Positions 11,625-61,038 of a DNA stretch of 64,000 bases are shown one piece after another; position 1 is the first letter of the stretch, and each line of letters starts with the position of its first letter. The notes under the pieces were generated by a model that made no database searches, was not told where the DNA came from, and worked only from the letters and a program-made list of their open reading frames with translations. A program made the position numbers and the translations under genes. This DNA comes from Calditrichia bacterium (GTDB taxonomy: Bacteria; Calditrichota; Calditrichia; RBG-13-44-9; J075), in assembly GCA_050633245.1 (NCBI GenBank), contig JBOEGD010000012.1, forward strand, positions 8,746 through 72,745, in the 5' to 3' direction.

Positions 11625-14243
11625 ATGGGAGTTTGGTACATGAAATCACGTCTATATATTTTGACCGCTCTGCTTTGTTGCGGAATCGGTGTCAGTTTGT
11701 TTATGATGACCGACAATACATCGTTGGATGCCGAAATCTGGCAGCAGAAACTTGAGAAGTCCGAGCCGGGCCCAGATCAACGACCATCTGAGTGGCTTTG
11801 GGAACGTCGTACATTCCCACATGGTGACGTAGCAAAGGGTGCACATCTGGAAATGCTTCAGCAAGCTCAGCAAATGCATGCCGAGAAGCGTTCGCAGAAA
11901 GGTAATGAACTCACATGGGAATTCGCAGGACCAACCAATGTGCAGGGTCGCGTCAATGATATTGAATTCGATCCCATCAATCCAAATATTATTTATACGC
12001 TACCCAACACCGGTGGCGTATTTAAATCGACCGACTCCGGCACATCCTGGATTCCTGTTTTTGATGAGCAGTCTATCCTAACCACCGGAGACATTGCCAT
12101 TGACCCGATCACCCCAACCACATTGTATGTTGGAACTGGTGACCCGAATGGCGGATCGCGTAATTTTCCGGGAGCGGGCATGTATAAGTCAACCGATGCA
12201 GGCGACACCTGGCAGCTCATAGGGCTGGAAAACACCGTTTCGATTGGACGCGTCTTAGTCGATCCGGTAAACACGCAGCGAGTCTTCGTAGCAGCAATCG
12301 GTTCTTACTTTGCGCCCAACCCGGAGCGCGGCGTGTATCGCAGCAGCGATGGCGGAGCCAGCTGGGACAATGTTCTATTTGTGAGCGACTCTACCGGCGC
12401 GATTGATTTGATCATGGATCCCACCAATCCCAACTTCCTTATGGCAGCAATGTGGGAACGCGTTCGCCGTCCACAATCGTCGCATCTATTTGGGCCAACC
12501 GGCGGCATCTATACAAGCACCGACGGTGGAGATACCTGGAATTTGATCGATCCGGTTTCTGCGGGTCTTCCCGATCCGACCGCCAGGAATGTTGGACGAA
12601 TTGGCTTAGCGATAAGTCAGAGCGATCCCAACATTATCTATGCTCTCTATAATGATGGCCGAACCTTAATCGGTATCTATAAATCAATCGATCAGGGAGC
12701 CACCTGGACCGATGCGGATCCGAACAATCAGCTTAGTGCCGCTTTCGGAACATTTAGCTGGAATATGGGACAAATTCGCGTTCATCCAACCGACCCGGAT
12801 ATTGTGTATGTGCTGGATGTGCGGATGGCAAAAACAACCAATGGCGGGAATAGCTGGAGCATTGATGTGCCATTTCACGTAGACTTTCATGCACTGGCGT
12901 TTAATCCACAGAATTCCGATCACATTCTTCTCGGTGGTGATGGCGGTATCGATATCTCAACCAATGGCGGGAATAGCTGGAGTGAAATCCCCGGTCTACC
13001 GGTAACGCAATTTTATGAGATTGGACTCGATGCGAGCAATCCACAGCGACTATACGGCGGCACGCAGGACAACAGCACCCCGCGCACGCTTACCGGTCAG
13101 CTGGATGATTGGGATATTCTTTTTGGTGGAGATGGCTTCTATGTCATCGTTGACCCGACTAATCCCAACGTCATCTACGCAGAAGCTCAATTTGGTTTCC
13201 TGGGTAAGTCTACAAATGGTGGCGCCTCATTTAATTCTCCGGTTACAAATGGCATCAACGGTTCGGAACCAACAAACTGGTCTACACCGGTTATTATGGA
13301 TCCGAATAACTCGCAGCGACTGTATTACGGCACAAACCGCGTGTATCGCACAGAGAATGGTGCCTCGAACTGGAATGCTATTAGTCCCGACTTAACCGAT
13401 GGCGGACCGCGTCTCGGAACGATCACCACCATCGCTGTTGCGCCAACTAATACCGACATCATCTATGCTGGAACCGATGATAGCCATGTCTGGCTCAGCA
13501 CAGATTTTGGTCTTTCCTGGAATGAAGTAACTGCCCCGGCCATGCCCTATCGCTGGGTAACGCGCGTGGCGGTTGACCCGACTGATGAGAATGTAGCCTA
13601 TGTCGCCTTCTCCGGGCTAAAGTGGCGCGACCCCGAACCGCACATCTTTAGAACCAGTGACCTTGGTGCAAATTGGACGGATATCAGCAGCAACCTGCCC
13701 AGCGCGCCAATTAATGCGATTGCAATTGATCCGATTGTGCAGGACGCCGTATATATTGGTACGGATGTCGGTGCTTACGTGAGTTTTGATGCAGGTGGCA
13801 ACTGGGAAGTGCTTGGAACAGGAATGCCGTTGGTAACGGTCTTTGATATGAAGATTCACCCGAATGAGCATTTCCTGGTAGCTGGAACATACGGTCGGTC
13901 AATGTATAAAATGGATCTCTCGCCACTTACCGGAATCGGACAAGAAGGTGAGTCGGGAGTGGCAGAAGGCTTTCAGCTGGAGCAGAACTTCCCGAATCCG
14001 TTTAACCCGAGCACAACCATTCGCTATAGTTTAGAAAGTGCCAATACCGTTAGCTTGAAGGTTTTCAACACTCTGGGACAGGAAGTGAGATCTCTTGTGA
14101 GCAAGCAGCAGGCAGCAGGCGACTATTCCATAGATTGGAATGGATTGGACAATTCCGGGGCAGCAGTTGCTTCCGGCACCTATGTTTATCAGCTACGCGT
14201 GGAGAATCAAGTGTTGAGCAAAAAAATGACGCTGCTACAGTAA
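11625..14243 (+). CDS. BNR/sortilin-Ycf48-like repeat glycosidase-like protein (GH74-like propellers) with T9SS C-terminal domain
   Basis: More than 10 'S.DGG.(T/S)W' BNR motifs (STDSGTSW, STDAGDTW, SSDGGASW, STDGGDTW …). C-terminus 'LEQNFPNPFNPSTTIRYSL…GTYVYQLRV…KKMTLLQ'. Confidence 0.85.
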   Translation: MGVWYMKSRLYILTALLCCGIGVSLFMMTDNTSLDAEIWQQKLEKSEPGPDQRPSEWLWERRTFPHGDVAKGAHLEMLQQAQQMHAEKRSQKGNELTWEFAGPTNVQGRVNDIEFDPINPNIIYTLPNTGGVFKSTDSGTSWIPVFDEQSILTTGDIAIDPITPTTLYVGTGDPNGGSRNFPGAGMYKSTDAGDTWQLIGLENTVSIGRVLVDPVNTQRVFVAAIGSYFAPNPERGVYRSSDGGASWDNVLFVSDSTGAIDLIMDPTNPNFLMAAMWERVRRPQSSHLFGPTGGIYTSTDGGDTWNLIDPVSAGLPDPTARNVGRIGLAISQSDPNIIYALYNDGRTLIGIYKSIDQGATWTDADPNNQLSAAFGTFSWNMGQIRVHPTDPDIVYVLDVRMAKTTNGGNSWSIDVPFHVDFHALAFNPQNSDHILLGGDGGIDISTNGGNSWSEIPGLPVTQFYEIGLDASNPQRLYGGTQDNSTPRTLTGQLDDWDILFGGDGFYVIVDPTNPNVIYAEAQFGFLGKSTNGGASFNSPVTNGINGSEPTNWSTPVIMDPNNSQRLYYGTNRVYRTENGASNWNAISPDLTDGGPRLGTITTIAVAPTNTDIIYAGTDDSHVWLSTDFGLSWNEVTAPAMPYRWVTRVAVDPTDENVAYVAFSGLKWRDPEPHIFRTSDLGANWTDISSNLPSAPINAIAIDPIVQDAVYIGTDVGAYVSFDAGGNWEVLGTGMPLVTVFDMKIHPNEHFLVAGTYGRSMYKMDLSPLTGIGQEGESGVAEGFQLEQNFPNPFNPSTTIRYSLESANTVSLKVFNTLGQEVRSLVSKQQAAGDYSIDWNGLDNSGAAVASGTYVYQLRVENQVLSKKMTLLQ

Positions 14244-33313: not shown

Positions 33314-33359
33314 CAGGATAGCGGGAAAAATTCGACAGTATTTATAAAGGAACCTCAGC

Positions 33360-34829
33360 ATGAATTTTGTATTCTCGGGCTGCATAACAGCGCTTTTTAC
33401 ATTGACATCGCTCGCGTTCTCTCAAGGCAGCGGTAGGATAGACCTGAACAGCCTCGAGAATTATGCTAATCAGTCCCGACCATCTTATATCTTCAAAGAC
33501 AACACACCGGCAAACAACCCGATTACCGATGCAGGAGCCACCCTCGGGAGGGTTTTGTTCTACGATAAAAGGCTATCGGTAAACAATTCCGTATCATGTG
33601 CCGGCTGCCATCATCAACGGCATGCTTTTGGCGACCCCAATCAGGTCAGCACCGGTGTAAACGGTATAACAGGCCGCCATTCCATGCGGCTCATCAATAC
33701 GCGCTTCGCTAGAGAATGGCGCTTCTTCTGGGATGAGCGTGCCGCCTCACTGGAACAACAATCTACCATGCCGCTTCAGGATCACATTGAAATGGGATTT
33801 AGCGGAACAATGGGTGACCCGGAGCTCGACTCACTGTTAAACAAAATGTCGACACTGGATTATTATTCTGTCCTCTTTGACTTCGTATATGGAGACCCGG
33901 GAATATCCGAGGAACGTATACAACTGGCAATGGCCCAGTTTATTCGCAGCATAGAATCCTTCGACTCACGCTTCGACGAAGGGCTGACGCAAACCGGAAA
34001 CATGCGCGTTAATTTTCCAAACTTCACTGAATCCGAGAATGATGGCAAGTTGCTGTTTTTGAACTTTCCGTTTTTTAATAATGACGGAGAGCGTGTTGCA
34101 GGCGGTGCAGGCTGCGCCTTTTGTCACAATCCGCCGGAGTTCAACATAAGAGCGGGTTCCGGAAATAACGGCTTTACACGCAAAATCGGCGGCGGCAAAG
34201 ATTTCAGTATTACCCGTTCCCCTACACTGCGCGATATCGCAGCTGCAAACGGGGACTTACACGGTGGACTTATGCATACGGGAGACAGGAATACCTTACA
34301 AGAAACGATCGATCATTATGATGATATCCTTATCGAGACAGGCAATTTTCGAATCGACCCGGTGTTGGTAGTTGGAGGCCGCGGCTGGCGCCTCAGGCTA
34401 ACACCGGGTGAGCGAATTGCCTTGGAAGATTTCATAAAAACACTGACTGGCTCGAACGTTTACACCGATCTTAAATGGTCGGATCCATTTGATGCAAACG
34501 GCGATTTGGAAATTACTCCACCTTCAACCACAGGCACTGAGCCACAGGCCCCTGCCGATGCCCTTACCTTTGAGCTTGCGCAAAACTATCCAAACCCATT
34601 CAATCCGTCCACTACTATTTCCTATCGTATCGGCCAGTCCAGCCGGGTAAACCTTAGCGTTTATAATATTCTGGGAATGGAAATCACCACACTGGTGAAT
34701 AAATTTCAGGAAGCTGGGAGGTATGATATTCCGTTTAACGCAGAGAATTTACCGGCAGGTGTATATTTTTATCGCCTGACAGCAGACAGACAGCCGGTTG
34801 AAACCCGTAAAATGCTGCTAAGTAAGTAG
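33360..34829 (+). CDS. Di-haem cytochrome c peroxidase (CCP/MauG family) with T9SS C-terminal domain – paralog 1
   Basis: 'LFYDKRLSVNNSVSCAGCHH' is the CCP N-terminal haem site and 'GCAFCHNPPEF' the second CxxCH. C-terminus 'LAQNYPNPFNPSTTISYRI…GVYFYRLTA…RKMLLSK'. Signal peptide present. Confidence 0.85.
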   Translation: MNFVFSGCITALFTLTSLAFSQGSGRIDLNSLENYANQSRPSYIFKDNTPANNPITDAGATLGRVLFYDKRLSVNNSVSCAGCHHQRHAFGDPNQVSTGVNGITGRHSMRLINTRFAREWRFFWDERAASLEQQSTMPLQDHIEMGFSGTMGDPELDSLLNKMSTLDYYSVLFDFVYGDPGISEERIQLAMAQFIRSIESFDSRFDEGLTQTGNMRVNFPNFTESENDGKLLFLNFPFFNNDGERVAGGAGCAFCHNPPEFNIRAGSGNNGFTRKIGGGKDFSITRSPTLRDIAAANGDLHGGLMHTGDRNTLQETIDHYDDILIETGNFRIDPVLVVGGRGWRLRLTPGERIALEDFIKTLTGSNVYTDLKWSDPFDANGDLEITPPSTTGTEPQAPADALTFELAQNYPNPFNPSTTISYRIGQSSRVNLSVYNILGMEITTLVNKFQEAGRYDIPFNAENLPAGVYFYRLTADRQPVETRKMLLSK

Positions 34830-34946
34830 AGACCCGACTGGAAGGCACTGGCTCGCCGGCATGCACCCCTGTCAACGAGCTGGTAGCGTTACTGAAAAAG
34901 CAGTAGGTTATTATTGTAGGCATGACACGAAGAAAGGAATTTCAGA

Positions 34947-36419
34947 TTGAATTTTGCACGCTTGAAGTATATCCCGACAGCATTAGTAGTGCTTACATCG
35001 CTCGCCTTCTCTCAAGGCAGCGGTACCATCGACCTGAACAGTCTCGAGAATTACGCTGATCAGCCCCGCCCATCCTATATTTTAAAAGACAACACTCCGG
35101 CAACCAATCCGCTTACCGATGCCGGAGCAACCCTCGGCAGAGTATTATTTTATGATAAGAGGCTCTCGGTAAACAATTCCGTTAGCTGTGCCAGTTGCCA
35201 CCATCAACAATTTGCTTTTGGTGATCCTGACCAGGTGAGCACAGGCGTAAATGGCATTACCGCCCGCCATTCAATGCGACTCATCAATACACGTTTTGCC
35301 GAAGAAAAAAAATTCTTTTGGGATGAACGTGCCGCTTCGCTGGAAGAACAAACATCGATGCCGCTTCAGGATCATATCGAGATGGGATTTAGCGGAACGA
35401 TGGGTGATCCAGAGCTCGATTCGCTGCTAAATAAAATGTCTGCACTGGAATACTATTCGATTCTCTTCAAATTTGTATATGGAGACGCAGCCATATCCGA
35501 GGCACGCATACAGCTGGCAATGGCTCAGTTTATTCGCAGTATAGAGTCTTTTGACTCACGCTTCGATGCCGGACTGACACAAACTGGCGACATAGACGCG
35601 TATTTCCCGAACTTCACTAAGGCTCAGAACTCCGGAAAACAGCTGTTTCTGGGAACACCGGTATTTAATAATGATGGCGAGCGTATTGCGGGAGGCGCCG
35701 GATGTGCATTATGCCATACTCCTCCGGAGTTCGACATTAAACCAGGCTCCGGGAATAACGGCTTTACTCGTAAACTTGGCGGTGGAAATGATTTTAATAT
35801 TACCCGTGCTCCCACCCTGCGCGACGTTGTCAAATTCAACGGCGCTTCGAACGGTGGACTCATGCATACGGGTGGCATGTTCAGCATAATCCATGTGATC
35901 GACCATTATGATAAGATTGAGATCGTGGAGGGCAACGAACAAATCGACTCGGTACTGGTGAGAAGCGGCAGGGGTTGGAACCTCCTGCTCTCTACTCAAG
36001 AGGTTAGAGATCTGTTCAGATTTATTGCAACACTGGGCGGTACAAATGTTTATTTCAACCCCAAGTGGTCCAATCCATTCGACGCAAACGGCGATTTGGA
36101 AGTGATTCCACCAACCACCACAGGCATTGAGCCTCAGGCTCCTGCTGATGCACTGACTTTTGAGCTGATGCAGAACTATCCCAACCCATTCAATCCATCG
36201 ACGACGATCTCCTACCGAGTCAGTCAATCCAGCCGGGTAAACCTAACCGTCTATAACATTTTGGGAAAGGCAATTGCCACACCGGTAAATGGATTTCAGG
36301 AAGCGGGGCGCTACAGCATTTCGTTCAACGCGGCTGATTTAACAGCCGGAATTTATTTTTATCGTTTAACTGCGGACGGCCAGCAGGTCGCAACCCGAAA
36401 AATGCTGCTGAGTAAGTAA
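34947..36419 (+). CDS. Di-haem cytochrome c peroxidase (CCP/MauG family) with T9SS C-terminal domain – paralog 2 (tandem duplicate)
   Basis: Same architecture ('SCASCHHQQFAFGD', 'GCALCHTPPEF', '…NYPNPFNPSTTISYRV…RKMLLSK'). Judged by eye at about 75-80% identity to paralog 1 at both DNA and protein level. Confidence 0.85.
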   Translation: MNFARLKYIPTALVVLTSLAFSQGSGTIDLNSLENYADQPRPSYILKDNTPATNPLTDAGATLGRVLFYDKRLSVNNSVSCASCHHQQFAFGDPDQVSTGVNGITARHSMRLINTRFAEEKKFFWDERAASLEEQTSMPLQDHIEMGFSGTMGDPELDSLLNKMSALEYYSILFKFVYGDAAISEARIQLAMAQFIRSIESFDSRFDAGLTQTGDIDAYFPNFTKAQNSGKQLFLGTPVFNNDGERIAGGAGCALCHTPPEFDIKPGSGNNGFTRKLGGGNDFNITRAPTLRDVVKFNGASNGGLMHTGGMFSIIHVIDHYDKIEIVEGNEQIDSVLVRSGRGWNLLLSTQEVRDLFRFIATLGGTNVYFNPKWSNPFDANGDLEVIPPTTTGIEPQAPADALTFELMQNYPNPFNPSTTISYRVSQSSRVNLTVYNILGKAIATPVNGFQEAGRYSISFNAADLTAGIYFYRLTADGQQVATRKMLLSK

Positions 36420-36491
36420 AGAATGCTCCTTTAATTGCTCAACAGCATCTAAACCGAGTCGGTAAATCAACTTGTTTTTAGCGGAAGTGCA

Positions 36492-38069
36492 CTAGACACT
36501 TCCCAAGGCGATGTAAATACCAATGGTTACGGCAACTAGACCTATTCCAAACCCTCTCGCATACTTCCACTGCGTCATGTCTACCACGCCAACATCCTGT
36601 ATTTTAAATACTTCTTTGGGAGGATAAAAATATGATGCAATGTGCATTGCTACGACATTTAGCACAAACTCGATGCCCCAGATATGTACAAAATGCAGAT
36701 CAACTTTCAGAATAAAGTAAGTGGTTATATAAAAGGCAAACCCAAACAGTAAGCCAACCTTTGCGCCGGTAGCCGAAACTTTTGGGAAAAAGAATCCAGC
36801 CAGTATTACGGTAGCCATTGGAATAAAAAAGATGCCGTTAAGTTCTTGTAGCAGCTGATACAAGCCTTCCGGAGCATCAGCAACTAAGGGTGCAACAGCA
36901 ATAGAGACAACAGCAAGGATAAGAGACACCGTTTTCCCCATCCACACCTGCTGCTTTTCACTGGCATCCGTATTTAGATAGCGTTTGTAAACCCCGAGAC
37001 TAAAAATAGTTGCCGCACTGTTTAACCCACTGTTAAACGTACTCAAAACAGCCCCCATTACCACCGCGACAAAAAAACCTGTCATCCAGTAAGGCAATAC
37101 TTTGTTTACCAATAGCGGGTAAATAGTATCCTGCTCATTATACAGTGAATCTCCAAAGTGATAATAGGCGATAAGTCCGGGCAGGATAATAACAATGGGA
37201 ATAAGGATTTTCAAAATACCGGCATATAGTAAGCCTTTTTGCGCCTCAACTAAACTTTTTGCCCCGAGGACGCGCTGAATGATTGACTGATGCATGCACC
37301 AGAAATAGAGCTGATTCACAATCAATCCTGTAAATAGCACTTCAAAAGGTAGTATAGAATCTCGTGCTCCAATAACGTTAAACTTGGAAGGCTCATATTC
37401 AAACACCTTTACCAAACCAGAGGCAATGTTTCCATCTCCAATGCTCCAAAGGGCCAAAACAGGTATCAAAACTCCGGCTATCAGCAATCCATAACCATTA
37501 ACCGTGTCTGTATAGGCAACCATTTTTAATCCACCAAATATGGCATAAATCGATCCGACGACCCCAATAGCAATAACTGTAATCCACATTCCCGTTCCTT
37601 GAGACACTCCCAGCATTTCAGAAATATTGAAGATGCTTTCGATATTAATCGCACCGGTGTACAGCACAATTGGCAGAAGTGTCGTAACAAAGGAAATAAT
37701 TAACAATAAGGCGATCATTGTTCTGGTCATACCATCAAACCGATGTTCCAGGAACTCCGGTATTGTGGTTAGTCCCATCTTCAGATACCGAGGCACAAAA
37801 TACAGTGCCGCCGCCACCAACGCGACCGCCGATGTTACTTCCCACGCGATGATTATGGCACCAAAACGATAGGAAGACCCATTCATGCCGATTAAATGTT
37901 CGGTAGAGATATTGGTTAACAACATCGATCCGGCAATCACAACGCCGGTTAAACTTCGCCCCCCTAAGAAATATCCATCTTTGGAATCCAGATTGTCTTT
38001 TCTAAGACGATAGGCCGAATAAATTGCTACAAACGCAGTAAACCCCAGAAAGCTCAAAAATTGAATCAT
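36492..38069 (-). CDS. Sodium:solute symporter (SSF) family transporter
   Basis: About 13 TM helices; SSF-like segments (…GGRSLTGVVIAGSMLLTNISTEHLIGMNG…). Confidence 0.85.
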   Translation of the reverse strand: MIQFLSFLGFTAFVAIYSAYRLRKDNLDSKDGYFLGGRSLTGVVIAGSMLLTNISTEHLIGMNGSSYRFGAIIIAWEVTSAVALVAAALYFVPRYLKMGLTTIPEFLEHRFDGMTRTMIALLLIISFVTTLLPIVLYTGAINIESIFNISEMLGVSQGTGMWITVIAIGVVGSIYAIFGGLKMVAYTDTVNGYGLLIAGVLIPVLALWSIGDGNIASGLVKVFEYEPSKFNVIGARDSILPFEVLFTGLIVNQLYFWCMHQSIIQRVLGAKSLVEAQKGLLYAGILKILIPIVIILPGLIAYYHFGDSLYNEQDTIYPLLVNKVLPYWMTGFFVAVVMGAVLSTFNSGLNSAATIFSLGVYKRYLNTDASEKQQVWMGKTVSLILAVVSIAVAPLVADAPEGLYQLLQELNGIFFIPMATVILAGFFFPKVSATGAKVGLLFGFAFYITTYFILKVDLHFVHIWGIEFVLNVVAMHIASYFYPPKEVFKIQDVGVVDMTQWKYARGFGIGLVAVTIGIYIALGSV

Positions 38070-51064: not shown

Positions 51065-52102
51065 TTATTGCCTGCTTAAAATCTGAGCAATACGATTATA
51101 AACAATCTTCGATATTTCCCAGGCGTTGCCGCCGCTGGTATTCACGAACTGGATTACAACCGTATCCATATCCTCATGATAGCGGGCAATACTTTGGTAT
51201 CCCGGTAGTAAGCCGGTATGGTTATATTTATAGATAGAGGAGTAAATGGATTGTTCCTGATCGGTTAACAATGAGCCATCATTCAAAGCTCTTATGAACA
51301 CGCCAACGTCTTTTACAGTCGCGACCATTGAACCACCGGGGTGTATAAAATCGTTATACTTTATATCAGGACCATAACCGACATAATAGCCACTCATCAC
51401 CTCGTTTAAATTGACCTCACTCAACAAGCTGTAGGTGTTATTCAGCTCAAGTGGCAGTAGAATTTCCTCTCTCACATACTGATGATGACTGTATCCTAAA
51501 ACTTTGTCAAGAATTAGACCAATCAACCAATAATTGGTATTGGAATAACGATACTCAGCATCAGGCTCAAAATCTGCAGGCATATCCAACACCAACTCAG
51601 AAGGTCCCATATTGTCTTTGTAAGGACTGGTCCACGGGTAATCCGGATGATCACTGTAATTGTAAATCCCACTGCGATGCTGCACCAGCACTCTCAGATT
51701 GATTCTTTCTGCATTTTCTATTCGTCCGGCAAATTCGGGCAAGTAATCGGCGAGCGTACTATCCAGAGACAATCGCTTTTCATTGACCAGTTCGGCTACC
51801 GCAACGGCGATATATAACTTGCTGATACTGGCAATCTTAAATAATGCCTGTGGATCGGCCGGGATCTTATTTTCCCGGTTTTTCCAGCCGGCAGAGTATA
51901 ATGTCGCCGGCTTATCGGCTTTCTGCACATATACGACAATACCGTCAAGGCCGTGCTGAATCGCATCATCCACTTCTTCCTGAACGGTATCAGGTAATGG
52001 CTGTAACCATGCCCAGACAATATCCCAGGGTGGAAATATCACAATACAAATAACAGCAATAATCGGCATGATGATTCGAAGGAGTCGGACGGTAGGCTTC
52101 AT
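51065..52102 (-). CDS. Serine hydrolase of the beta-lactamase family (class-C-like), membrane-anchored or secreted
   Basis: N-terminal TM/signal. S-x-x-K 'FKIASISKLYIAVAVAEL'. Y-x-N-like 'YSNTNYWLIG'. Confidence 0.8.
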   Translation of the reverse strand: MKPTVRLLRIIMPIIAVICIVIFPPWDIVWAWLQPLPDTVQEEVDDAIQHGLDGIVVYVQKADKPATLYSAGWKNRENKIPADPQALFKIASISKLYIAVAVAELVNEKRLSLDSTLADYLPEFAGRIENAERINLRVLVQHRSGIYNYSDHPDYPWTSPYKDNMGPSELVLDMPADFEPDAEYRYSNTNYWLIGLILDKVLGYSHHQYVREEILLPLELNNTYSLLSEVNLNEVMSGYYVGYGPDIKYNDFIHPGGSMVATVKDVGVFIRALNDGSLLTDQEQSIYSSIYKYNHTGLLPGYQSIARYHEDMDTVVIQFVNTSGGNAWEISKIVYNRIAQILSRQ

Positions 52103-52415
52103 TTTTTTGATAGTACTTTGGTCCTTCAGCGTCGCTAAACGCTACACTCAGCGGAAGCGTGGGTTTTCAAGTATTGTAGATTTATTTCGAGATCTCATGT
52201 TAATACAAAATACGGATTTCTTGTTTATTTACGAAAACTTAAATCTACGCGGACAGTTAAAAGCTCGCTTTTCCTTCAATTCTTTCAACACATCCTCAAG
52301 CACTGCCTGCGTATTAGACAATTTCTCTCGGTTTTGATAGGGCGAGACCAAAAGACATCCAACAATCATGGGAGAGAGTTGGATGCGTGGTTTGCCTTTT
52401 CAATACAGCATCGGC

Positions 52416-53276
52416 CTAGCACCCGATATTTTCTACTGGTGCATTACCTTGCTGAAATATAAGGATCTTATTTACACGTAGGTTACCATCCCAATACCAG
52501 CGAAGACCATTGTTATACTGCCAGAAGTTATCACCGGTATCTACAAGTTCCGGTGGTCCAAAATTGGCTAAAACTTCTGATTGCAATGATCCGATTCCGA
52601 GAAAATCGCGCGTTACATCCGCGAATGGTCCTTCCATAATGATAACCGTTGCGACTTCGTCTTGCTCTGGAGTTATTCCGGTCCCTGGCAGAAAGATAGA
52701 AATCCCCTGATTAGTATATTTCACAATATGCCCGGATATGCTGCCGAAAGGGTCAACAATAGTGCAGAACGTATCCGAAAAACCAAGAATTTGAATAATG
52801 TGTTGATAGGTATCTCCTATTTCTATTCCTGCCGCACCGATTCCTTGTAGGATAGTGACGTTATAAAACACCTCAAAAGACACGGAAATTTCTGAAGTTG
52901 TTTCTTCTGCTTCCAACCGAAGTACATCTGTATAGTCTCCTATCGGTTGAAAAATGTCAGCAGTCAACTTTAGAGTATCAGGAATGGAGGAACTGGCACC
53001 TTCAAATCTCTCCAGCGCGAGCCAGGAAGGCTGACCCACCACTCTCCAGCTACAAGCTGAGCCATTATTAGAAGCACTAACTGTTATTTCACTTGCATTA
53101 GCCTCCTGTGTTAATACAACGGCGTTCTGGCCCGCCGATATTGTAAGATCGCACAGTAGAGGATCTGTAGTCTCACTACAACTTAACTGCATGAAAACAG
53201 TAACACTCATAATTAGTAGGAGAACAAGCTGAGGTAGAGAGAATAAATCTCGGATAGATTGTTTTTGTAAATACAT
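52416..53276 (-). CDS. Hypothetical lipoprotein
   Basis: Signal peptide with lipobox 'MQLSCSE'; no family recognised. Confidence 0.5.
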   Translation of the reverse strand: MYLQKQSIRDLFSLPQLVLLLIMSVTVFMQLSCSETTDPLLCDLTISAGQNAVVLTQEANASEITVSASNNGSACSWRVVGQPSWLALERFEGASSSIPDTLKLTADIFQPIGDYTDVLRLEAEETTSEISVSFEVFYNVTILQGIGAAGIEIGDTYQHIIQILGFSDTFCTIVDPFGSISGHIVKYTNQGISIFLPGTGITPEQDEVATVIIMEGPFADVTRDFLGIGSLQSEVLANFGPPELVDTGDNFWQYNNGLRWYWDGNLRVNKILIFQQGNAPVENIGC

Positions 53277-53584
53277 AACACCTCCCCAATAAACGGAACA
53301 TTAAACCTTTGTTTGCACATTATTTCTTGAAGTTCGAATTGACAAAATGTAATCGATCAATGTGGGGGAGTTATTGTTAATAATAGCATGTTTGCTTGAA
53401 ACATGTCAAGAATTATACCTAAAAAATAGTTGACAACTTTTTGCTAAATTTCACATCTAGTCGTTCAAGTAAACCGACTTATTTGCGAATAATAACAGCT
53501 TGACGTTATGTTAATCCAACGCTCACAAAAAGCAAAGTGCCTCTAATCAAAACTATAGGAGCGCTTTTATATTGGTGCTCCCCC

Positions 53585-53622
53585 CAGGGAGTGTCGAGTG
53601 AATACATCTGGGTGGTGAGGGC
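53585..53622 (+). repeat. Copy A of a conserved ~38-nt intergenic motif (CCCAGGGAGTGTCGAGT-N-ATAC-N-T-N-T-GG-TGGTGA)
   Basis: Ungapped alignment to 54873-54910 gives 13/13 identity over GGGAGTGTCGAGT plus a shared downstream ATAC…GGTGGTGA. Confidence 0.6.
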
Positions 53623-53757
53623 GGCACTATATAAATCAATCCACTAATTCGATCTTATTTGATATCATACACTCAACGTTCAAAATTCAGGGTTGTTCAA
53701 TAACCAGAGAATCCACTGGGTTGGACAGTTTTTCCGCCTACAGCCGTTGCATATCTG

Positions 53758-54666
53758 CTACTCATAATTTACGACCTCAATATAAATATCATATTGCTTG
53801 TTCTTTTTGGCAATGTAGGCAATGTGTTTTCCATCCGGCGACCAACTCGGTTCGGTGACACGGTTGAAGCCCTCTCCCATTTTCTGCAGCACCTTGCCTT
53901 GCAAATCCAGGATCTGAATATAGCGGATATCTTCACTTTCCTTCTTGGCAGAAGCAATGAACTTTCCGTCCGGGGACCAGGACGGGCAGAAATCGTGACC
54001 GGGGCTATTGGTTACTCGCTGTAACGATTGATCAGCAACACTAAGAATGTAGATTTCATCGTCTTTACCTTCCGTATCGCGGCGTGAGAAGAAAGCGATT
54101 TGGGAGCCGTCCGGTGAGTAACGCGGCCAGACATTGCGGAAGGAACCCGGGTCAATTGCCGAATCTGTCGCTGTCGTTGAAGTCGCTGGAATTTCGATTC
54201 GCTTTACACCAACACCAATAGTGAAACTAAAGAGGTCGATATTACCCTCAACAGCGGCACAGTAAACAATCGATTTTCCGCCAGGCGACCAATGGGGCAT
54301 CATCTCGCTTTCCGGGGACTGGGTGATCCCATCGAGGTTGTTAGAGACAAGATCATAGATATACAGATCAGGCTGGCCGTTAAGATCACTCTGCAAAACA
54401 ATGGATTCATTCTTCGGGGAAAAGGCCGGAAAACGCTCGTTCCGGGGAGTATCAAGGACCTTCTCAATTCGGCGCTCATCAACCATCAATAAAAAAATCC
54501 CCCAGGAGCTGTCAACCTTGCTTTCAAAGAGAATTTTTTTGCCGTCCGCCGACCAGGTGGGATAACGCTCATCCGCGGGGGTATCGGTGAGCTGGATGGG
54601 GCCATTTTTACCCTGCGGAAAAGCAGCGGCCGTAAAAGAAAGGAGGATGAAGAAAAGCGTGCGCAT
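53758..54666 (-). CDS. TolB-like beta-propeller (PD40/WD40-like repeats) periplasmic or secreted protein
   Basis: Signal peptide. Repeated 'YP.WSPDGK.I.F/Y' PD40-type motifs (ERYPTWSADGKKILF, PHWSPGGKSIVY, PRYSPDGSQIAF, PSWSPDGKFIAS, PSWSPDGKHIAY). Confidence 0.8.
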   Translation of the reverse strand: MRTLFFILLSFTAAAFPQGKNGPIQLTDTPADERYPTWSADGKKILFESKVDSSWGIFLLMVDERRIEKVLDTPRNERFPAFSPKNESIVLQSDLNGQPDLYIYDLVSNNLDGITQSPESEMMPHWSPGGKSIVYCAAVEGNIDLFSFTIGVGVKRIEIPATSTTATDSAIDPGSFRNVWPRYSPDGSQIAFFSRRDTEGKDDEIYILSVADQSLQRVTNSPGHDFCPSWSPDGKFIASAKKESEDIRYIQILDLQGKVLQKMGEGFNRVTEPSWSPDGKHIAYIAKKNKQYDIYIEVVNYE

Positions 54667-54820
54667 ATTTGTCCGTCTTTTTTAGAGTGTAAGTATTCAA
54701 GTTCTCCAGGATTGATTTGATTTTAATCTAAAAGATGATTTAAAAAGAGGCAAGTCTAAAGCCCTCAAGAAGAAAAACACCCCAAGCGATGCGAACCCCT
54801 GCAAAACATCCTCTCCATAC

Positions 54821-54862
54821 CCCCATAAAAACAAAACGGGTTATCCGTTTGGATAACCCGTT
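54821..54862 (-). terminator. Rho-independent terminator on the minus strand, about 150 nt downstream of the small redox-protein gene
   Basis: AACGGGTTATCC – gttt – GGATAACCCGTT perfect 12-bp stem. On the minus strand it is followed by TTTTGTTTTTAT (the A-run at 54821-54834 on the plus strand). Confidence 0.65.
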
Positions 54863-54872
54863 GCGCTGTACT

Positions 54873-54910
54873 CCCAAGGGAGTGTCGAGTCTATACTTGT
54901 AGGTGGTGAA
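54873..54910 (+). repeat. Copy B of the conserved ~38-nt intergenic motif
   Basis: CCCAAGGGAGTGTCGAGTCTATACTTGTAGGTGGTGAAG. It lies between the glutaredoxin-like gene stop (55016) and the minus-strand terminator, so it falls in that gene's 3'UTR if co-transcribed. Confidence 0.6.
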
Positions 54911-55015
54911 GCAATACACAATTAACTTGCAAAATAGATATAATATCTACTTCAGGATCTTATTCAATTGTATTAAGATCTTCTCTTTCGATGGAACTCC
55001 ATCTGGATAATATCT

Positions 55016-55255
55016 TCATGTAGGAGCGGCTGGTGCTGGTCTTGACACCCCAAATAGATCTGTTGAATTTAGTAATATAGTTGGTGTTCCATAACCTGTT
55101 CTGCAATCGTGAGCAGGGAGCTCACCTACATCAATTATTTCTACTTGTTGCGGTAGACGCAGTTCTTTAATTGCATCAATTAAGTGCTCATACATTGTTT
55201 GAGAGTTTGAACAATTGGAACGCGTTAAGAAGCAGATTTTTTTATTTCTATCCAT
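55016..55255 (-). CDS. Small thioredoxin-fold / glutaredoxin-like (DUF836-like) protein with a CxxS motif
   Basis: 79 aa. 'KKICFLTRSNCSNS…' and 'YGTPTILL' resemble a monothiol glutaredoxin-like fold. Weak. Confidence 0.45.
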   Translation of the reverse strand: MDRNKKICFLTRSNCSNSQTMYEHLIDAIKELRLPQQVEIIDVGELPAHDCRTGYGTPTILLNSTDLFGVSRPAPAAPT

Positions 55256-55527
55256 AAAAATTTTTCATGGTTGATTGATAAAAATTAAGATTTTACTGAA
55301 CAAACTCTTTGAAATGCTTTTTTGGATCGTTCTTAATACTGCCAACGTTTTATAGTTGAAACGAAACAAATACAATGCGTCTTAAAATATACTATATATT
55401 TCCTTTACTACAATGATCGCTGGATCTTAATCAACTTAAAGTTTCCAAGATTTATCGGATAAGGCTAAAGTCCCCGACATTTTTGTTCTCACAAAACTAC
55501 CGCGATCTAGATCCACTCCTGAAATAG

Positions 55528-55622: not shown

Positions 55623-58600
55623 TTACTTAAGAAGCAGAACCCGTTGGGTTTGCTCATGTTGACTCGTGCTTAATCTTACAAAATACGTTCCGCTGGCAAC
55701 ACCGGAGGCGTTCCACTGATAGTTGTGCTCACCGGCATTTAGATTCTGATTCACCAGTGTTTGCACCAAACGACCATTAATATCGTAAACCTTCAGATTT
55801 ACAATCGTGCGTTCCGGAATACTAAAGCGGAAGGTGGTTGACGGATTAAACGGGTTCGGATAATTGGGAAAGAATGTAAATTGATTTGGTATATTGGTCT
55901 CATCTCCTATACCGGTCGGATTACCAATCGTGAATGAGCCGCTTGCCACAGCACTGCCTAAGAATGCGGCATCGACTGATTGTATGGACCAGACGTAACT
56001 TCCTTCTTCCAGGTTATCGATTAACCAGTTGACGGTAGCCCCAACATTTCCGGGTTCCGGCAGGCGATAGGCCGTGGATATCGGCGTACCGTTTTGAGAA
56101 ACCTTTAATTCATAGGTCAATGCCGCAGCGGGCGTATGGTCGTCATTGGCAGCATTCCATGTAAATACTACAGAGCTATCCGGTTGAACGTCAGCACTGA
56201 GACCATTAGGAGGTGTCGGTGCCAGGTTTTGCCCGGGGGAATCGTTGCGATAGAGATGCATCTGAGCTTCCACTAGCCCATTGCCACCGGGGACAAAATA
56301 CTGTCCGGCTATAAAGTAATCGAGATCCCCCTCACCATCAATATCTAACCAGGAGAAGGTTCCGCCGCGGGTTCCGGATGCCCTTGGGGCAGGCAGATCA
56401 GTCCCGGACTGACTGAAAACACCCCCATTGTTTTCATATATCCGTGCACGCCCTTCGATCTGCGAGCCTGAGTTATAAGTGCCTCCAAGCAGAATGTCGA
56501 CATCGCCATCATTATCGTAATCCGCCCATGTAACGGCATTTACATCAAACCAGCCTTCACAGGGAATACAGTTGATAATCTCGATTGGTGAGTAGACATC
56601 ATTATCGTTCTGATAGATTCGCAAGACGTTTTTATAGGTGCCGTCGGTATCATTAACATTTCCACCGATCAGAATATCCAAATCTCCGTCGGCATCATAG
56701 TCGCCCCAATTTGCAGCCCCATGTTCTATAGTCAGTGAGTCGATGATATCCTGAGGGGTAAAGAATCCGTTTCCATCATTGCGATAGCGGCGAATAAAAC
56801 CATCAAAGGTTAGCGGCTCTATATTAATTAGCAGTAAATCCAGATCCTGGTCGCCGTCATAATCTGCCCAAAAGCTCTGCGCGTGTGGAGCCGAGGTAAG
56901 TGCTGCATTCGTTTCCTCAGTAAAGATCCAGCCACCGCTGCCGTTTGGCCCATCATTGCGCATCAGCTTTGTTTCATGTAAAAAAGTGATGTTATTATAA
57001 ACCGACGGTAGCAAAAGATCGGCATCACCGTCGTTATCGTAATCTGCCCATGAAATAGAATTCAGATCAAACTCTGCCTGGCCGTTGTCTTCCCAATATC
57101 CGGGCAGGAGCGTATTCGTCGGCACCATACTACCGGCATCATTTCGATATAGAATTGTTTTTCCGTTCGTCCCAACCACCAAGTCCGGATCATTATCATT
57201 ATCGACATCTCCCCAGGCCATGTCGGATGCTCCGGATGTCAGGGTGTCGAAGGGGAGGGAGATGTATTCAAAGTCCCATTGGGTTTGTGTGGATGAACCG
57301 TTATTTTGCAATAGTAGTAGCCGATAATCAACGCTTTGGTTATAGACGACATAAAAACCGAGCACCGCAATATCCAGATCGCCATCCAGATCAAAATCAG
57401 CCGGTGCGGTGGTAATAACCCAGAAGTCCTCATCCTGCGGCGTTACAAAAACGGAATCAATGGGAGTAACTTCTGTAAATGCTCCAAAGGTACCTCCGGG
57501 ACCAGGCTGAGCAACTACAGCTCGGAGAGTCGTATTGGAGTCGCCGTCATCATCAACCACGGTTAATCTTACCAGATAGGTGTTTGCTGCGGCAAAGGTA
57601 TGCGACGGATTGCGCTCGGTTGAAGTCGTCCCGTCACCAAACTCCCAGAACCAGCTGATAATTGTTCCGTCCGGGTCATTACTGGTATCGGTAAAATCAA
57701 CGCTTAAACCAATGGTGTTAAACGTGAATGATGCTGCCGGTGGACGGTTTAACGGTGGAGGTGGTGGACCATTAAAATGTTCAATATATCCTTGAAATCC
57801 ACCTGTCCAGGCATTGCCTGCTGTATCTGCTACGATCGTGCTAAAATTGCCAAAGCCTTCTGAACCAATTTGTAGCACTGCCCAGTTTTGTCCACCGTTA
57901 GCGGAATAATAGGCTAGGTTATCCAGTGTACTGAGCCAGATTTCATTTGGACCGAGTAAGTAGATGTCACTGAATTTAACCGACGTGGTTTGGGTCGGGA
58001 GTTCTTCCCAGGTTAATCCGCCGTCATTGCTGCGGGCCGCATAGCCGCCCCAGCCCACCACATAGCCGGTTGCTTCATCATAAAAATCAATATCAGCAAC
58101 CTGAAACGGTGAGCCCGGCAGGGTTCCGGAAAACCAGTTCTGGCCGTTGTCATTCGTGATTTGCAATGGGCCACCGACGTTTACCGCCCAACCGTTTGGA
58201 CCTTCGAAGTCCACAGCAACATACAGTCCTCCAAAGCCCGGTATGCCGGTCCATGTAGCTCCACCGTCAATTGTTTGTAATAATGCTCCTCCAATAGGCC
58301 CACTTCCGATAACCCACCCTTCAGATGGGCTACTGAATTGTAGATCATAACCGGAAAAGCCGCTGGGTTTTGCAATCAGAGGCTGCCAGCTTGCACCACC
58401 ATCACCGCTGATGTGAACTTGTCCTGAGTTATCGATAATTGCTATTTCCTGAGCAGAAATAATGTCCACCGCTTCAATGTCTACGAAACCAAGACTTTGC
58501 TGCAGCTGCCATTTTCCATTTCCATCTGTCGTCAGGATAGTCCCTTCATCCCCTACAGCAATCATTCGTCCATCATCGAAACGAGCTATGTCGTTAATTG

Positions 58601-59735
58601 CCTGACCAACTCCGCTGGATATCTGAGACCATGAGTTACCGCCATCTGTTGATTTTATAGCAAAGCCGTGACCGTATGCAAAATAGCCGGTTGAGGATGT
58701 AGGGAAAACAGGTACTGCACTACCGAAAAATCCCGGCCTTGGTCCTGGTGAAGCGAAAGTTTGACTCCAGGTCGCACCACCATCAATAGACAAATACATG
58801 TTTCCATCTTTATCTGCTCCAACAACGTTTTGTGTATCAAGAACTGTTAGAGCCAATACGCCGGAAGGCATAACGGTGCCGATATCTGTCCAGGTTGCCC
58901 CACCATCTGCTGATCTGAAGACGCGGTTGTCCAAATTAGGAAATGCCCCTGTTCCCCAGGCAAGAACCGTTGTTTCAGAAAGCACGGTGAAGTTTGACTT
59001 TTCATTTGCCGAACCAACATCGATCCATGTTGAACCGCTATTCGTACTACGCATTATTCTATCATCCACAATTGCCAGCAGGGTATTAGCAGACAGGTAA
59101 GTGGCATCCTTTGCATCGCCGGATAGCAGTAGAGAAATTGTGCTGCCGCCGTCAGTTGTCCCGTAAAGGCCACTTGCCGAAACGCCCAGTGCGTTTTGAG
59201 CATCAAAGAAGTCAAACCGGAATATATCATTTGGAGAAGCAGACCAATTCAGACCTCCATCAATACTTACCTGTATGCCGAAGTTACCACTGGCGATTCC
59301 AAAGTCAGGCGTGTAAAACTCCATAAAATAGGTTGAGCCTAAAAATGGAATCTCTGTCCAGGTGGTGCCCCCGTCCAATGTCCGGTAATTATTATTTCCA
59401 TAGGTCCAGCCTCTTTGCGAATCGAGAAAGAATATACCGTTCAGCGGTGAATTCAGGTTGATCGGCACATTTCTCTGTACCCAGGTATCACCTCGGTCTG
59501 TTGATTCAAAGAGTGCACCATTGTTGTCAAAAGGGTCATCATCGGTGGCAAGAAATATTCTATTTTCAGTCGGTGCAGCCATACCGCCTACATCAAGATC
59601 TGTTGGAACAGGACTCTCTGTCGACCATTGCGTGAAACCTGTGGAGTGCAGCAAAAAACACATCAGGAAGGTTAATAAGAATGTTGTTGAGCGATATGTA
59701 TTTTGTATTACTAGTTTTGTTTTGAACGTTTTCAT
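55623..59735 (-). CDS. Giant (1370 aa) mosaic secreted protein: BNR/Ycf48-like propeller(s) plus PKD domain plus FG-GAP/VCBS repeats plus Ig/FN3-like region plus T9SS C-terminal domain
   Basis: Signal peptide. At least 12 'S.DGG.(T/S/N)W' motifs. PKD 'WFWEFGDGTTSTERNPSHTF…YLVRLTVVDDDGDS'. Seven calcium-binding FG-GAP-type loops (DFDLDGDLDIAV, DYDNDGDADLLL, DYDADGDLDILIG …). C-terminus 'FPNYPNPFNPSTTFRFSI…GTYFVRLST…RVLLLK'. Confidence 0.85.
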   Translation of the reverse strand: MKTFKTKLVIQNTYRSTTFLLTFLMCFLLHSTGFTQWSTESPVPTDLDVGGMAAPTENRIFLATDDDPFDNNGALFESTDRGDTWVQRNVPINLNSPLNGIFFLDSQRGWTYGNNNYRTLDGGTTWTEIPFLGSTYFMEFYTPDFGIASGNFGIQVSIDGGLNWSASPNDIFRFDFFDAQNALGVSASGLYGTTDGGSTISLLLSGDAKDATYLSANTLLAIVDDRIMRSTNSGSTWIDVGSANEKSNFTVLSETTVLAWGTGAFPNLDNRVFRSADGGATWTDIGTVMPSGVLALTVLDTQNVVGADKDGNMYLSIDGGATWSQTFASPGPRPGFFGSAVPVFPTSSTGYFAYGHGFAIKSTDGGNSWSQISSGVGQAINDIARFDDGRMIAVGDEGTILTTDGNGKWQLQQSLGFVDIEAVDIISAQEIAIIDNSGQVHISGDGGASWQPLIAKPSGFSGYDLQFSSPSEGWVIGSGPIGGALLQTIDGGATWTGIPGFGGLYVAVDFEGPNGWAVNVGGPLQITNDNGQNWFSGTLPGSPFQVADIDFYDEATGYVVGWGGYAARSNDGGLTWEELPTQTTSVKFSDIYLLGPNEIWLSTLDNLAYYSANGGQNWAVLQIGSEGFGNFSTIVADTAGNAWTGGFQGYIEHFNGPPPPPLNRPPAASFTFNTIGLSVDFTDTSNDPDGTIISWFWEFGDGTTSTERNPSHTFAAANTYLVRLTVVDDDGDSNTTLRAVVAQPGPGGTFGAFTEVTPIDSVFVTPQDEDFWVITTAPADFDLDGDLDIAVLGFYVVYNQSVDYRLLLLQNNGSSTQTQWDFEYISLPFDTLTSGASDMAWGDVDNDNDPDLVVGTNGKTILYRNDAGSMVPTNTLLPGYWEDNGQAEFDLNSISWADYDNDGDADLLLPSVYNNITFLHETKLMRNDGPNGSGGWIFTEETNAALTSAPHAQSFWADYDGDQDLDLLLINIEPLTFDGFIRRYRNDGNGFFTPQDIIDSLTIEHGAANWGDYDADGDLDILIGGNVNDTDGTYKNVLRIYQNDNDVYSPIEIINCIPCEGWFDVNAVTWADYDNDGDVDILLGGTYNSGSQIEGRARIYENNGGVFSQSGTDLPAPRASGTRGGTFSWLDIDGEGDLDYFIAGQYFVPGGNGLVEAQMHLYRNDSPGQNLAPTPPNGLSADVQPDSSVVFTWNAANDDHTPAAALTYELKVSQNGTPISTAYRLPEPGNVGATVNWLIDNLEEGSYVWSIQSVDAAFLGSAVASGSFTIGNPTGIGDETNIPNQFTFFPNYPNPFNPSTTFRFSIPERTIVNLKVYDINGRLVQTLVNQNLNAGEHNYQWNASGVASGTYFVRLSTSQHEQTQRVLLLK

Positions 59736-59781: not shown

Positions 59782-60999
59782 TTACTTCATTAAAAGCATT
59801 TTACGCATCAATGCGGAGCCATTTTGTTTTAACTCGTAGAAATAAACACCGCTCGGTAAATATTCTGCCTCAAATGTATAGGTGTATTCTCCTGATGGGG
59901 CTGTTGCGACGTTTATAGATTGAACTATCTGTCCAACAGCGTTAAATATATTTAGCTGAACAGGACCCGCTTTTAGAACCCGGTAACGAATTGTAGTGGA
60001 TGGATTAAAGGGATTTGGGTAGTTTTGATCAAGTTCGATTCCTTCAGGGTGGATGGACGTTACATCCTCAATACCGGTTGCGGATTCAAACACATATATC
60101 ACGCCCGCATCTCCGACAGCCCAGCCACGCTCGGGGGAGGCAAAGTGTACTTCGGTAATTTCACCAAAGGCTGTTCCATTGAACTGCAGCGTCCAGTTTA
60201 AGCCGCCATCTGTGGTTTGGTAGATATTATGGCCTTCGCTGGTTGCCCATCCCAGTTCATTATTGATAAAAAACAGGCCGTTAAGATCTTCTACTATTCC
60301 TGTTGAACGTGAGGACCAGGTAGTTCCACCGTTATCGGTAAACAAAAGCGAAGGAGTGCTGCTGCGGCTAATATAGCCAACTTGGCTGTCTAGAAACTGT
60401 ACGTCCTGAATGTCATCGCCGCCCGGTGATTGGCTAACCCAACTGGCTCCGGCATTCTGAGTATGACGCAGAAGAGCTCCGTTACCGACGATCCAGGCGA
60501 GGTCACTTCCGATTGCATCAATGGAGCGGATTCTTGAGCCGCTTCCGGTTACCAAGCTGCTCCAGTTTACTCCGTTGTCCACAGACCGGATTGCCGCGCC
60601 ACCCTCTCCGGCAGCCCAGACAACGTCACCACTGCCCCAGGCAACACCACGAAGCTGCGAGGCCGTAGGGGAGGTCTGCAAGGTCCAGGATTGGCCGCCG
60701 TTTGTGGTTTGAAAGACCGTGCCGCCATCACCTACAACAATCCCGAGATTGGCATCTTTAAATGCTATGCCCTGTAAATCAGCGCCAGTTAATGCCACCG
60801 AATTCCAGTTCATCCCACCATCTGTTGTATGTAGTAACACTCCATTATCTCCGCAGACCCAGGCTTCAGCAGCACTTAGGGCAAACACATCATCAAGGTC
60901 AGCCGTTACGCCACTGTTTTGTGCTGACCAGTTTTGCGCATGTAAACCCATGCTGATTACCAGCAGGAAAAACCAAATTAACTTAGCATTCTTTTTCAT
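59782..60999 (-). CDS. BNR/Ycf48-like repeat propeller protein with T9SS C-terminal domain
   Basis: 'TTDGGMNW, TTNGGQSW, SVDNGVNW, TQNAGASW, TDNGGTTW, TTDGGLNW'. C-terminus 'LDQNYPNPFNPSTTIRYRV…GVYFYELKQ…RKMLLMK'. Start at MKKNAK, preceded by AAGGAG; the longest ORF extends to 61029. Confidence 0.8.
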   Translation of the reverse strand: MKKNAKLIWFFLLVISMGLHAQNWSAQNSGVTADLDDVFALSAAEAWVCGDNGVLLHTTDGGMNWNSVALTGADLQGIAFKDANLGIVVGDGGTVFQTTNGGQSWTLQTSPTASQLRGVAWGSGDVVWAAGEGGAAIRSVDNGVNWSSLVTGSGSRIRSIDAIGSDLAWIVGNGALLRHTQNAGASWVSQSPGGDDIQDVQFLDSQVGYISRSSTPSLLFTDNGGTTWSSRSTGIVEDLNGLFFINNELGWATSEGHNIYQTTDGGLNWTLQFNGTAFGEITEVHFASPERGWAVGDAGVIYVFESATGIEDVTSIHPEGIELDQNYPNPFNPSTTIRYRVLKAGPVQLNIFNAVGQIVQSINVATAPSGEYTYTFEAEYLPSGVYFYELKQNGSALMRKMLLMK

Positions 61000-61038
61000 A
61001 ATCCTCTCCTTTCCATCGCCTTTTGGCAACGGATATTG

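Follow-up and report, generated by a model that had tools for sequence, protein, structure and literature searches.

Two copies of a short C-rich block flanking a TolB-like gene of a Calditrichia bacterium: a possible 3'-untranslated RNA module

A 64-kb stretch of DNA (the window), part of a 226,515-nt contig from a metagenome-assembled genome (MAG) that NCBI labels Calditrichia bacterium (locus-tag prefix ACRBF0), carries two direct copies of a block of 37-40 bases, copy A at 53582-53622 and copy B at 54873-54913, one on each side of a TolB-like gene. Several explanations of this pair were compared. The one that we rank first, as a tentative choice that we do not hold to be probable, is that the two copies form a short RNA-level module in the 3' untranslated regions (UTRs) of two neighbouring minus-strand transcripts. 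It was placed first because of the strand of the copies and their position after stop codons, the nearness of copy B to a terminator, a hairpin that ends both copies, and the pattern of constant boxes around a variable spacer. That the copies are transcribed, and that they have any function, we infer from the sequence.

The best ungapped alignment pairs 53582-53618 with 54873-54909, with identity at 31 of 37 positions (84%). The longest exact run common to both copies is a 14-mer (plus strand AGGGAGTGTCGAGT, minus strand ACTCGACACTCCCT) located at 53586-53599 in copy A and at 54877-54890 in copy B. Also common to both are an 8-mer, hereafter box 1 (minus strand TCACCACC, plus strand GGTGGTGA), at 53611-53618 and 54902-54909, and the tetranucleotide GTAT (ATAC on the plus strand) that lies between box 1 and the 14-mer. 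Read on the minus strand, where the copies run ...CTCACCACCCAGATGTATTCACTCGACACTCCCTGGGG for A and ...TTCACCACCTACAAGTATAGACTCGACACTCCCTTGGG for B, the block has the layout TCACCACC - N5 - GTAT - N2 - ACTCGACACTCCCT - (loop) - GGGAG. The six mismatches (C/T, G/C, T/A, T/A, C/G and G/T) are clustered: five of them fall in the 11-nt spacer while the 8-nt and 14-nt boxes are perfect, an arrangement found in ~4% of random placements (p about 0.04). The two boxes, UCACCACC and CACUCCCU, are C-rich, G-poor and similar to anti-Shine-Dalgarno (anti-SD) sequences, which suggests pairing with a G-rich sequence or binding of a protein.

The copies are spaced by 1291 nt with exactly one gene between them, and both lie inside the non-coding DNA that makes up 7.0 kb, or 11%, of the window. 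They occupy adjacent intergenic spacers among about 40, a situation expected in ~5% of cases for a randomly dispersed family. Outside the block the surrounding sequences are unrelated, as neither side aligned above shuffles in Smith-Waterman comparisons of the two intergenic regions. The unrelated flanks, the clustered mismatches and the adjacent spacers together point to a local origin of the two copies; since the flanks are unrelated and the genes neighbouring the copies are not paralogs of each other, a large segmental duplication is excluded. No third copy was found in the window: an nhmmer match at 12910-12946 is inside an open reading frame (ORF) of 872 amino acids (aa), and another, at 36488-36508, belongs to an unrelated hairpin located between convergent genes. 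The window contains no inverted copy of the block either. A 9-mer, AATAAGATC, is also shared upstream of both copies (53652-53660 and 54956-54964, minus strand, 32 and 46 nt from box 1). The alignment around it did not rise above shuffles, the instance near copy B is inside an extended coding sequence, and the sharing is probably due to chance.

The original prediction had reported two direct copies of a motif in non-coding DNA around the TolB-like gene, and both are indeed present, in regions where no reading frame shows a coding-type pattern. Its exact shared run exists but measures 14 nt and not 13, and both of its copies could be located, although the string given for copy A spans 53583-53620, so that its coordinates had been shifted by +2; that of copy B spans 54873-54911. 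The distances that it had proposed to the next minus-strand start codons also agreed with ours, the copies being 207 and about 307-340 nt upstream. A small protein encoded within the block was considered and rejected on six-frame translation: the similarity of the peptides stops where the DNA block does, there are no usable starts and the differences are mostly non-synonymous.

The similarity between A and B is real and moderately significant. With a 121-nt query around copy A, copy B was recovered from the window by blastn at E=1.7e-5 and by nhmmer at E=1.5e-4; scaled to an all-against-all comparison within 64 kb, the blastn value becomes about 5e-3. Thirty windows shuffled by blocks of 200 nt gave non-self pairs of at most 36.8 bits, and none of them attained the 38.3 bits observed. 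The other real pairs of at least this strength in the window are all coding paralogs. Smith-Waterman alignment of the two intergenic spacers scored 25 versus 12.4 +/- 1.7 for shuffles (maximum 21, z about 7), and this alignment covers the 37-nt block only. The shared 14-mer taken alone is expected by chance, as simple counting predicts about 7-8 such pairs per orientation in 64 kb.

As the minus strand carries every local gene, each copy is in the 3' flank of the gene that precedes it. The three genes concerned carry the consecutive tags ACRBF0_11650, ACRBF0_11655 and ACRBF0_11660 of the NCBI annotation pipeline PGAP, so nothing is annotated between them. The gene before copy B (54947-55255, minus strand), probably one for a selenoprotein, has its true stop 36 nt ahead of the copy; a canonical intrinsic terminator (54826-54862, minus strand; 12-bp stem, -19.3 kcal/mol, tail TTTTGTTTTT) that ends the transcript of this upstream small gene follows the copy after 10 nt. 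The earlier statement that this copy separates a small redox-type gene from its terminator is correct. Copy A starts 135 nt past the stop of the TolB-like gene. Only a weak hairpin comes after it (53546-53580, minus strand; GGAGCAC/GCGCUCC with a 10-nt loop, about -3.6 kcal/mol, then UAUAGUUUUGAUU), which was not called by the terminator scan and is therefore a doubtful terminator of the TolB-like gene. Box 1 is about 85 nt from the T-rich tail in both cases. The two copies can therefore be placed in parallel, just before the 3' end of a transcript, firmly in the case of B and tentatively in that of A. In each copy the end of the 14-mer box folds into a tetraloop hairpin with a 5-bp stem: CUCCC-UGGG-GGGAG at 53578-53591 for copy A (minus strand, -7.6 kcal/mol), whose 3' arm shares bases with the 5' arm of the weak hairpin that comes next, and ACUCC-CUUG-GGAGU at 54870-54883 for copy B (minus strand, -5.7 kcal/mol).

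If the two copies do act as a 3'-UTR module, the transcripts of the small selenoprotein-type gene and of the TolB-like gene would each carry it just ahead of their 3' end. The module would comprise two C-rich, anti-SD-like boxes kept single-stranded, an 11-nt variable spacer with its GUAU, and the 5-bp tetraloop hairpin. The boxes might serve as the landing site of an RNA-binding protein or might pair with a G-rich partner, the consequence being an altered stability or processing of the 3' end. A short RNA derived from the 3' UTR and sharing the terminator of the mRNA might also be released.

Elements of this kind are known in other bacteria. The 3' UTR of icaR in Staphylococcus aureus bears a UCCCC anti-SD motif, and CpxQ and SroC of enterobacteria are small RNAs (sRNAs) derived from 3' UTRs that share the terminator of their mRNA. 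The block resembles them in its position between a stop codon and the 3' end of a transcript, on the strand of the gene, and in being short, C-rich, anti-SD-like, single-stranded and adjacent to a hairpin or terminator. It differs from them in lacking conservation in relatives and in that no complementary Shine-Dalgarno (SD) sequence was noticed in the genes' own 5' regions, which were inspected by eye only and without pairing computation. Sibling sRNAs with C-rich seed boxes (RsaE/RoxS type) and multi-copy paralogs such as Qrr, LhrC and OmrA/B offer another comparison: here too two nearby copies have conserved boxes, a variable remainder and a distance of box 1 to the T-rich tail of about 85 nt. 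Unlike these sRNAs, however, copy A has neither a convincing promoter nor a solid terminator, and there is no Rfam match. The RAT antiterminator sites recognised by BglG, SacY and LicT are also motifs of roughly 30 nt repeated within one genome directly ahead of a terminator, and the small hairpin of copy A competes with the next hairpin as RAT sites do. The hairpin of copy B, on the contrary, does not overlap its terminator, no genes for antiterminators with a phosphotransferase-system (PTS) regulation domain (PRD) or for PTS components are nearby, and the block follows a gene instead of lying in a leader.

Several results weigh against a 3'-UTR module. With two copies only, there is no covariation and no phylogenetic support. 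The whole-element fold of copy A does not exceed that of shuffled sequences (z = -0.4 to -0.7), and the folds of copies A and B are unlike on either strand. The hairpin after copy A being weak, nearness to a terminator is firm for copy B only. Duplexes computed with RNAduplex between the motif and the 42 initiation regions of the window were no better than those of shuffled motifs, which again departs from the icaR, CpxQ and SroC type. Finally, no copy was found in L033, a contig from the Logan collection and the sole relative obtained, or in any public collection scanned. A more specific proposal, which we consider improbable, is that the copies are the first members of a family of Calditrichia-specific regulatory RNAs, embedded in or derived from 3' UTRs, whose dual anti-SD-like boxes UCACCACC ... 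CACUCCCU would act in trans on the SD regions of mRNAs for envelope or exported proteins. We know of no small-RNA regulator described in this phylum. A sigma70-like match precedes copy B (TTGAAT-16-TATTAT, 9/12, at 54967-54940) but falls inside the extended ORF of the small gene, a further difference from the sibling sRNAs, and the scan called no minus-strand promoter upstream of the motif in the copy-A spacer.

Searches for known elements were negative. Rfam 15 gave no match at gathering thresholds over the whole window, and at E<=10 the sole match within 53300-55300 was a chance snoRNA elsewhere. ARAGORN found no tRNA or tmRNA gene, or remnant of one, in the window. With nothing in Rfam and nothing annotated between the genes, we agree with the earlier view that no annotated element is involved. 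Copies in other genomes were equally absent. The pattern ACTCGACACTCCCTNGGG had 21 single matches in GTDB species genomes, in unrelated taxa and none with flanking boxes; CACCACCN{9,13}ACTCGACACTCCC had 11 matches in JGI metagenomes, none with GTAT or GGG context; two pattern scans of IMG/VR returned nothing. These three collections were scanned with exact patterns that diverged copies would escape, and they do not include the source MAG, since not even the window came back from them. A blastn comparison with plasmids and phages gave no copy, the motif was not present downstream of the closest homologs of the small gene, which come from unrelated GC-rich organisms, and a literature search with the core sequence led to a single match in an unrelated eukaryotic paper. 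The motif had been called conserved, a term that finds no support for a sequence seen only at these two places in all the collections searched. The repeat is probably private to its lineage, with two known copies, and a minor, local curiosity.

The original prediction had further proposed that the motif is a shared cis-regulatory element or leader of the exported-protein genes downstream. These are the TolB-like gene, from which copy B is separated by its strong intrinsic terminator, and a lipoprotein gene of 286 aa, which has its own promoter and leader at 53274-53409 (minus strand), downstream of and separate from copy A. The promoter is near-consensus (TTGACA-N18-TATTAT with TG, 53409-53380) and located about 170 nt beyond copy A. 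In the leader, a 5' box, AUAACUCCCC, pairs with the gene's own SD and start region. The relative L033 (8.8 kb) is 81% identical for the beta-lactamase-like gene (bla), 70% for the 294-aa gene and 52% for the ortholog of the 286-aa gene. For the latter gene, the promoter and the beginning of the leader are conserved in L033, and homology ends there, before copy A. The corresponding region of L033 is 6596-6745 (plus strand); its equivalent boxes, AACAACUCCCU and AGGGAGUUGUU, pair perfectly, with a minimum free energy of -37.9 kcal/mol for the leader, and the helix differs between the window and L033 by a compensatory U>C / A>G change. On these sequence features it looks like a conserved SD-sequestering leader. 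No copy of the motif was found in L033, either by nhmmer or by a search for the 14-mer with up to 3 mismatches. Because promoter and leader are conserved in this motif-free relative, there is no support for the motif serving the exported-protein genes as a leader or in cis regulation. As for a conserved structured cis-regulatory RNA, the two copies have only a 4-5 bp hairpin in common, with no compensatory change. As to the suggested check for co-occurrence with cargo genes of the type IX secretion system (T9SS), neither the TolB-like nor the 286-aa gene has a T9SS sorting domain; such domains belong to two genes lying further upstream, of 1370 and 415 aa.

The copies might instead act at the DNA level, as an operator, an upstream activating sequence or an alternative-sigma promoter of the TolB-like and lipoprotein genes. 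In favour of this, both genes encode exported proteins and the bipartite layout TCACC-N17-CGAC loosely recalls the -35/-10 spacing of extracytoplasmic-function (ECF) sigma factors. We nevertheless regard such a site as quite unlikely, given the terminator that stands between copy B and the TolB-like gene, the independent promoter and leader of the lipoprotein gene, the lack of T9SS domains in both genes, the unequal distances of the copies to candidate promoters (about 180 nt versus about 130 nt) and the lack of dyad symmetry in the block. A search for sigma-54 promoters was uninformative (301 matches compared to about 282 expected). Still less likely are site-specific recombination sites (attL/attR, or of the integron attC type) bounding a one-gene cassette. 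Direct repeats with an exact 14-bp core, partly similar arms and a single gene in between would suit them, but GTTRRRY and RYYYAAC core sites are absent from the copy-B spacer and do not bracket copy A, the block lacks the form of a long imperfect palindrome, no site of this type occurs in the neighbouring spacers, and a Pfam scan of 18 window ORFs revealed no integrase or recombinase. The two copies are no template/variable pair of a diversity-generating retroelement, their mismatches not being confined to adenines and both being non-coding.

The alternative with most weight is that the pair has no function and was left as a scar by a local event of short-patch duplication or recombination, for example when a Campbell-type or homeologous integration inserted the TolB-like gene between copies of ~40 nt. 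This explanation and the 3'-UTR module are roughly equally likely in our estimate, the module being ranked first. Direct repeats around exactly one gene, 1291 nt apart, would mark the junctions of such an event, and ~40 nt is about the minimal length of a recombination substrate. The region is moreover rearranged with respect to L033: in the window (51065-53276 region, minus sense) the order is TolB-like, 286 aa, beta-lactamase-like, (186 aa), 294 aa, whereas L033 (5497-8517) has beta-lactamase-like, 283 aa, 294 aa, and neither a TolB-like nor a small thioredoxin-like gene adjacent. The repeat consequently lies in a rearranged stretch. The TolB-like gene also has no homolog above 42% identity and a GC content at third codon positions (GC3) of 0.55, at the top of the local range (neighbours 0.24 and 0.36), and no other copy of the block was met in anything searched. 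On the other hand, this GC3 is within the range found across the window, no recombinase, transposase or target-site-duplication signature is seen nearby, and a 16% divergence concentrated in the spacer, with perfect boxes, departs mildly from what neutral decay would give (p about 0.04). Membership in a genome-wide, lineage-specific family of dispersed repeats, similar to repetitive extragenic palindromes (REP), BOX elements or miniature inverted-repeat transposable elements (MITE), appears unlikely to us. Like REP sequences and the mosaic elements built from them (BIME), the block is short, intergenic, located in gene 3' flanks and provided with a small inverted repeat (ACTCCC..GGGAGT), and such families are usually specific to a species or genus, which fits the lack of matches in other genomes. 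Yet the 64 kb, of which 7 kb are intergenic, hold only 2 copies, in adjacent spacers, and the 8.8 kb of L033 were found to hold none. The block is mostly asymmetric with a palindrome of only 5-6 bp (ACTCC(C)/(G)GGAGT) compared to stems of 10 bp or more, it has no terminal inverted repeats or target-site duplications, and no REP-associated RAYT/Y1 transposase was seen. Similarity by mere chance is also rather improbable. The sharing of a 14-mer would indeed be expected in 64 kb, the observed score barely exceeds that of the best shuffle and there is no external support of any kind; against this stand the all-against-all E value, the absence of an equal score among the 30 shuffles, the z of about 7 for the local alignment, and the location of both copies on the same strand, in adjacent spacers and in the non-coding 11% of the window.

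The position of copy B depends on the gene upstream of it, which is annotated as a thioredoxin-like ORF of 79 aa (55016-55255, minus strand). This ORF ends at an in-frame TGA (55016-55018), and the frame runs on for 22 codons to a TAG (54947-54949), so that readthrough would give a protein of 102 aa. Its three closest homologs, L035, L036 and L037, each from an unrelated contig, share the in-frame TGA and the peptide that comes after it, U-R-x-Y-P-x-G-V-P-S, and homologs lacking the TGA continue through the same conserved residues; in the latter, the selenocysteine (Sec) column is occupied by Gly or Asn and not by Cys, which is unusual. A hairpin similar to a selenocysteine insertion sequence (SECIS) lies at 54990-55003, 12 nt past the UGA, and is kept by a compensatory change from U-A to C-G at third codon positions. 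A weak match (E=6e-7, below the curated cut-off) to the NCBIfam model NF049942, 'DF family (seleno)protein', covers nearly all of the extended 102-aa protein. The 79-aa ORF is thus probably a selenoprotein gene annotated as truncated. Reading it as a Sec protein sets the true stop 36 nt before copy B and puts the sigma70-like match at 54967-54940 inside coding sequence. The GC3 of the 55016-55255 ORF is unusually low, 0.24 compared to 0.36-0.55 for its neighbours, and no SD was seen by eye before its start.

The gene between the copies (53758-54666, minus strand) encodes a PD40/TolB-like beta-propeller protein with a signal peptide. Further upstream, 55623-59735 and 59782-61029 (minus strand) encode large secreted proteins with BNR/Ycf48-like, FG-GAP and PKD domains and C-terminal T9SS sorting domains. 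Short DNA repeats at 2258, 7122, 15888, 18560, 34575 and 36163 correspond to the conserved start of these sorting domains (coding sequence of the NYPNPFN type). Elsewhere in the window, two tandem paralogous genes at 33346-34832 and 34933-36422 (489 and 490 aa) share about 75% nucleotide identity over 1.5 kb.

As the evidence stands, the practical importance of the repeated block is low, and the probable truncated annotation of a selenoprotein and the conserved SD-sequestering leader of the lipoprotein gene are the more useful by-products of the analysis. Knowledge of Calditrichia as a phylum comes almost entirely from metagenomes. If the block is functional, it would offer a first entry point into post-transcriptional regulation there, and a small example of two unrelated neighbouring genes with a common 3'-UTR module.

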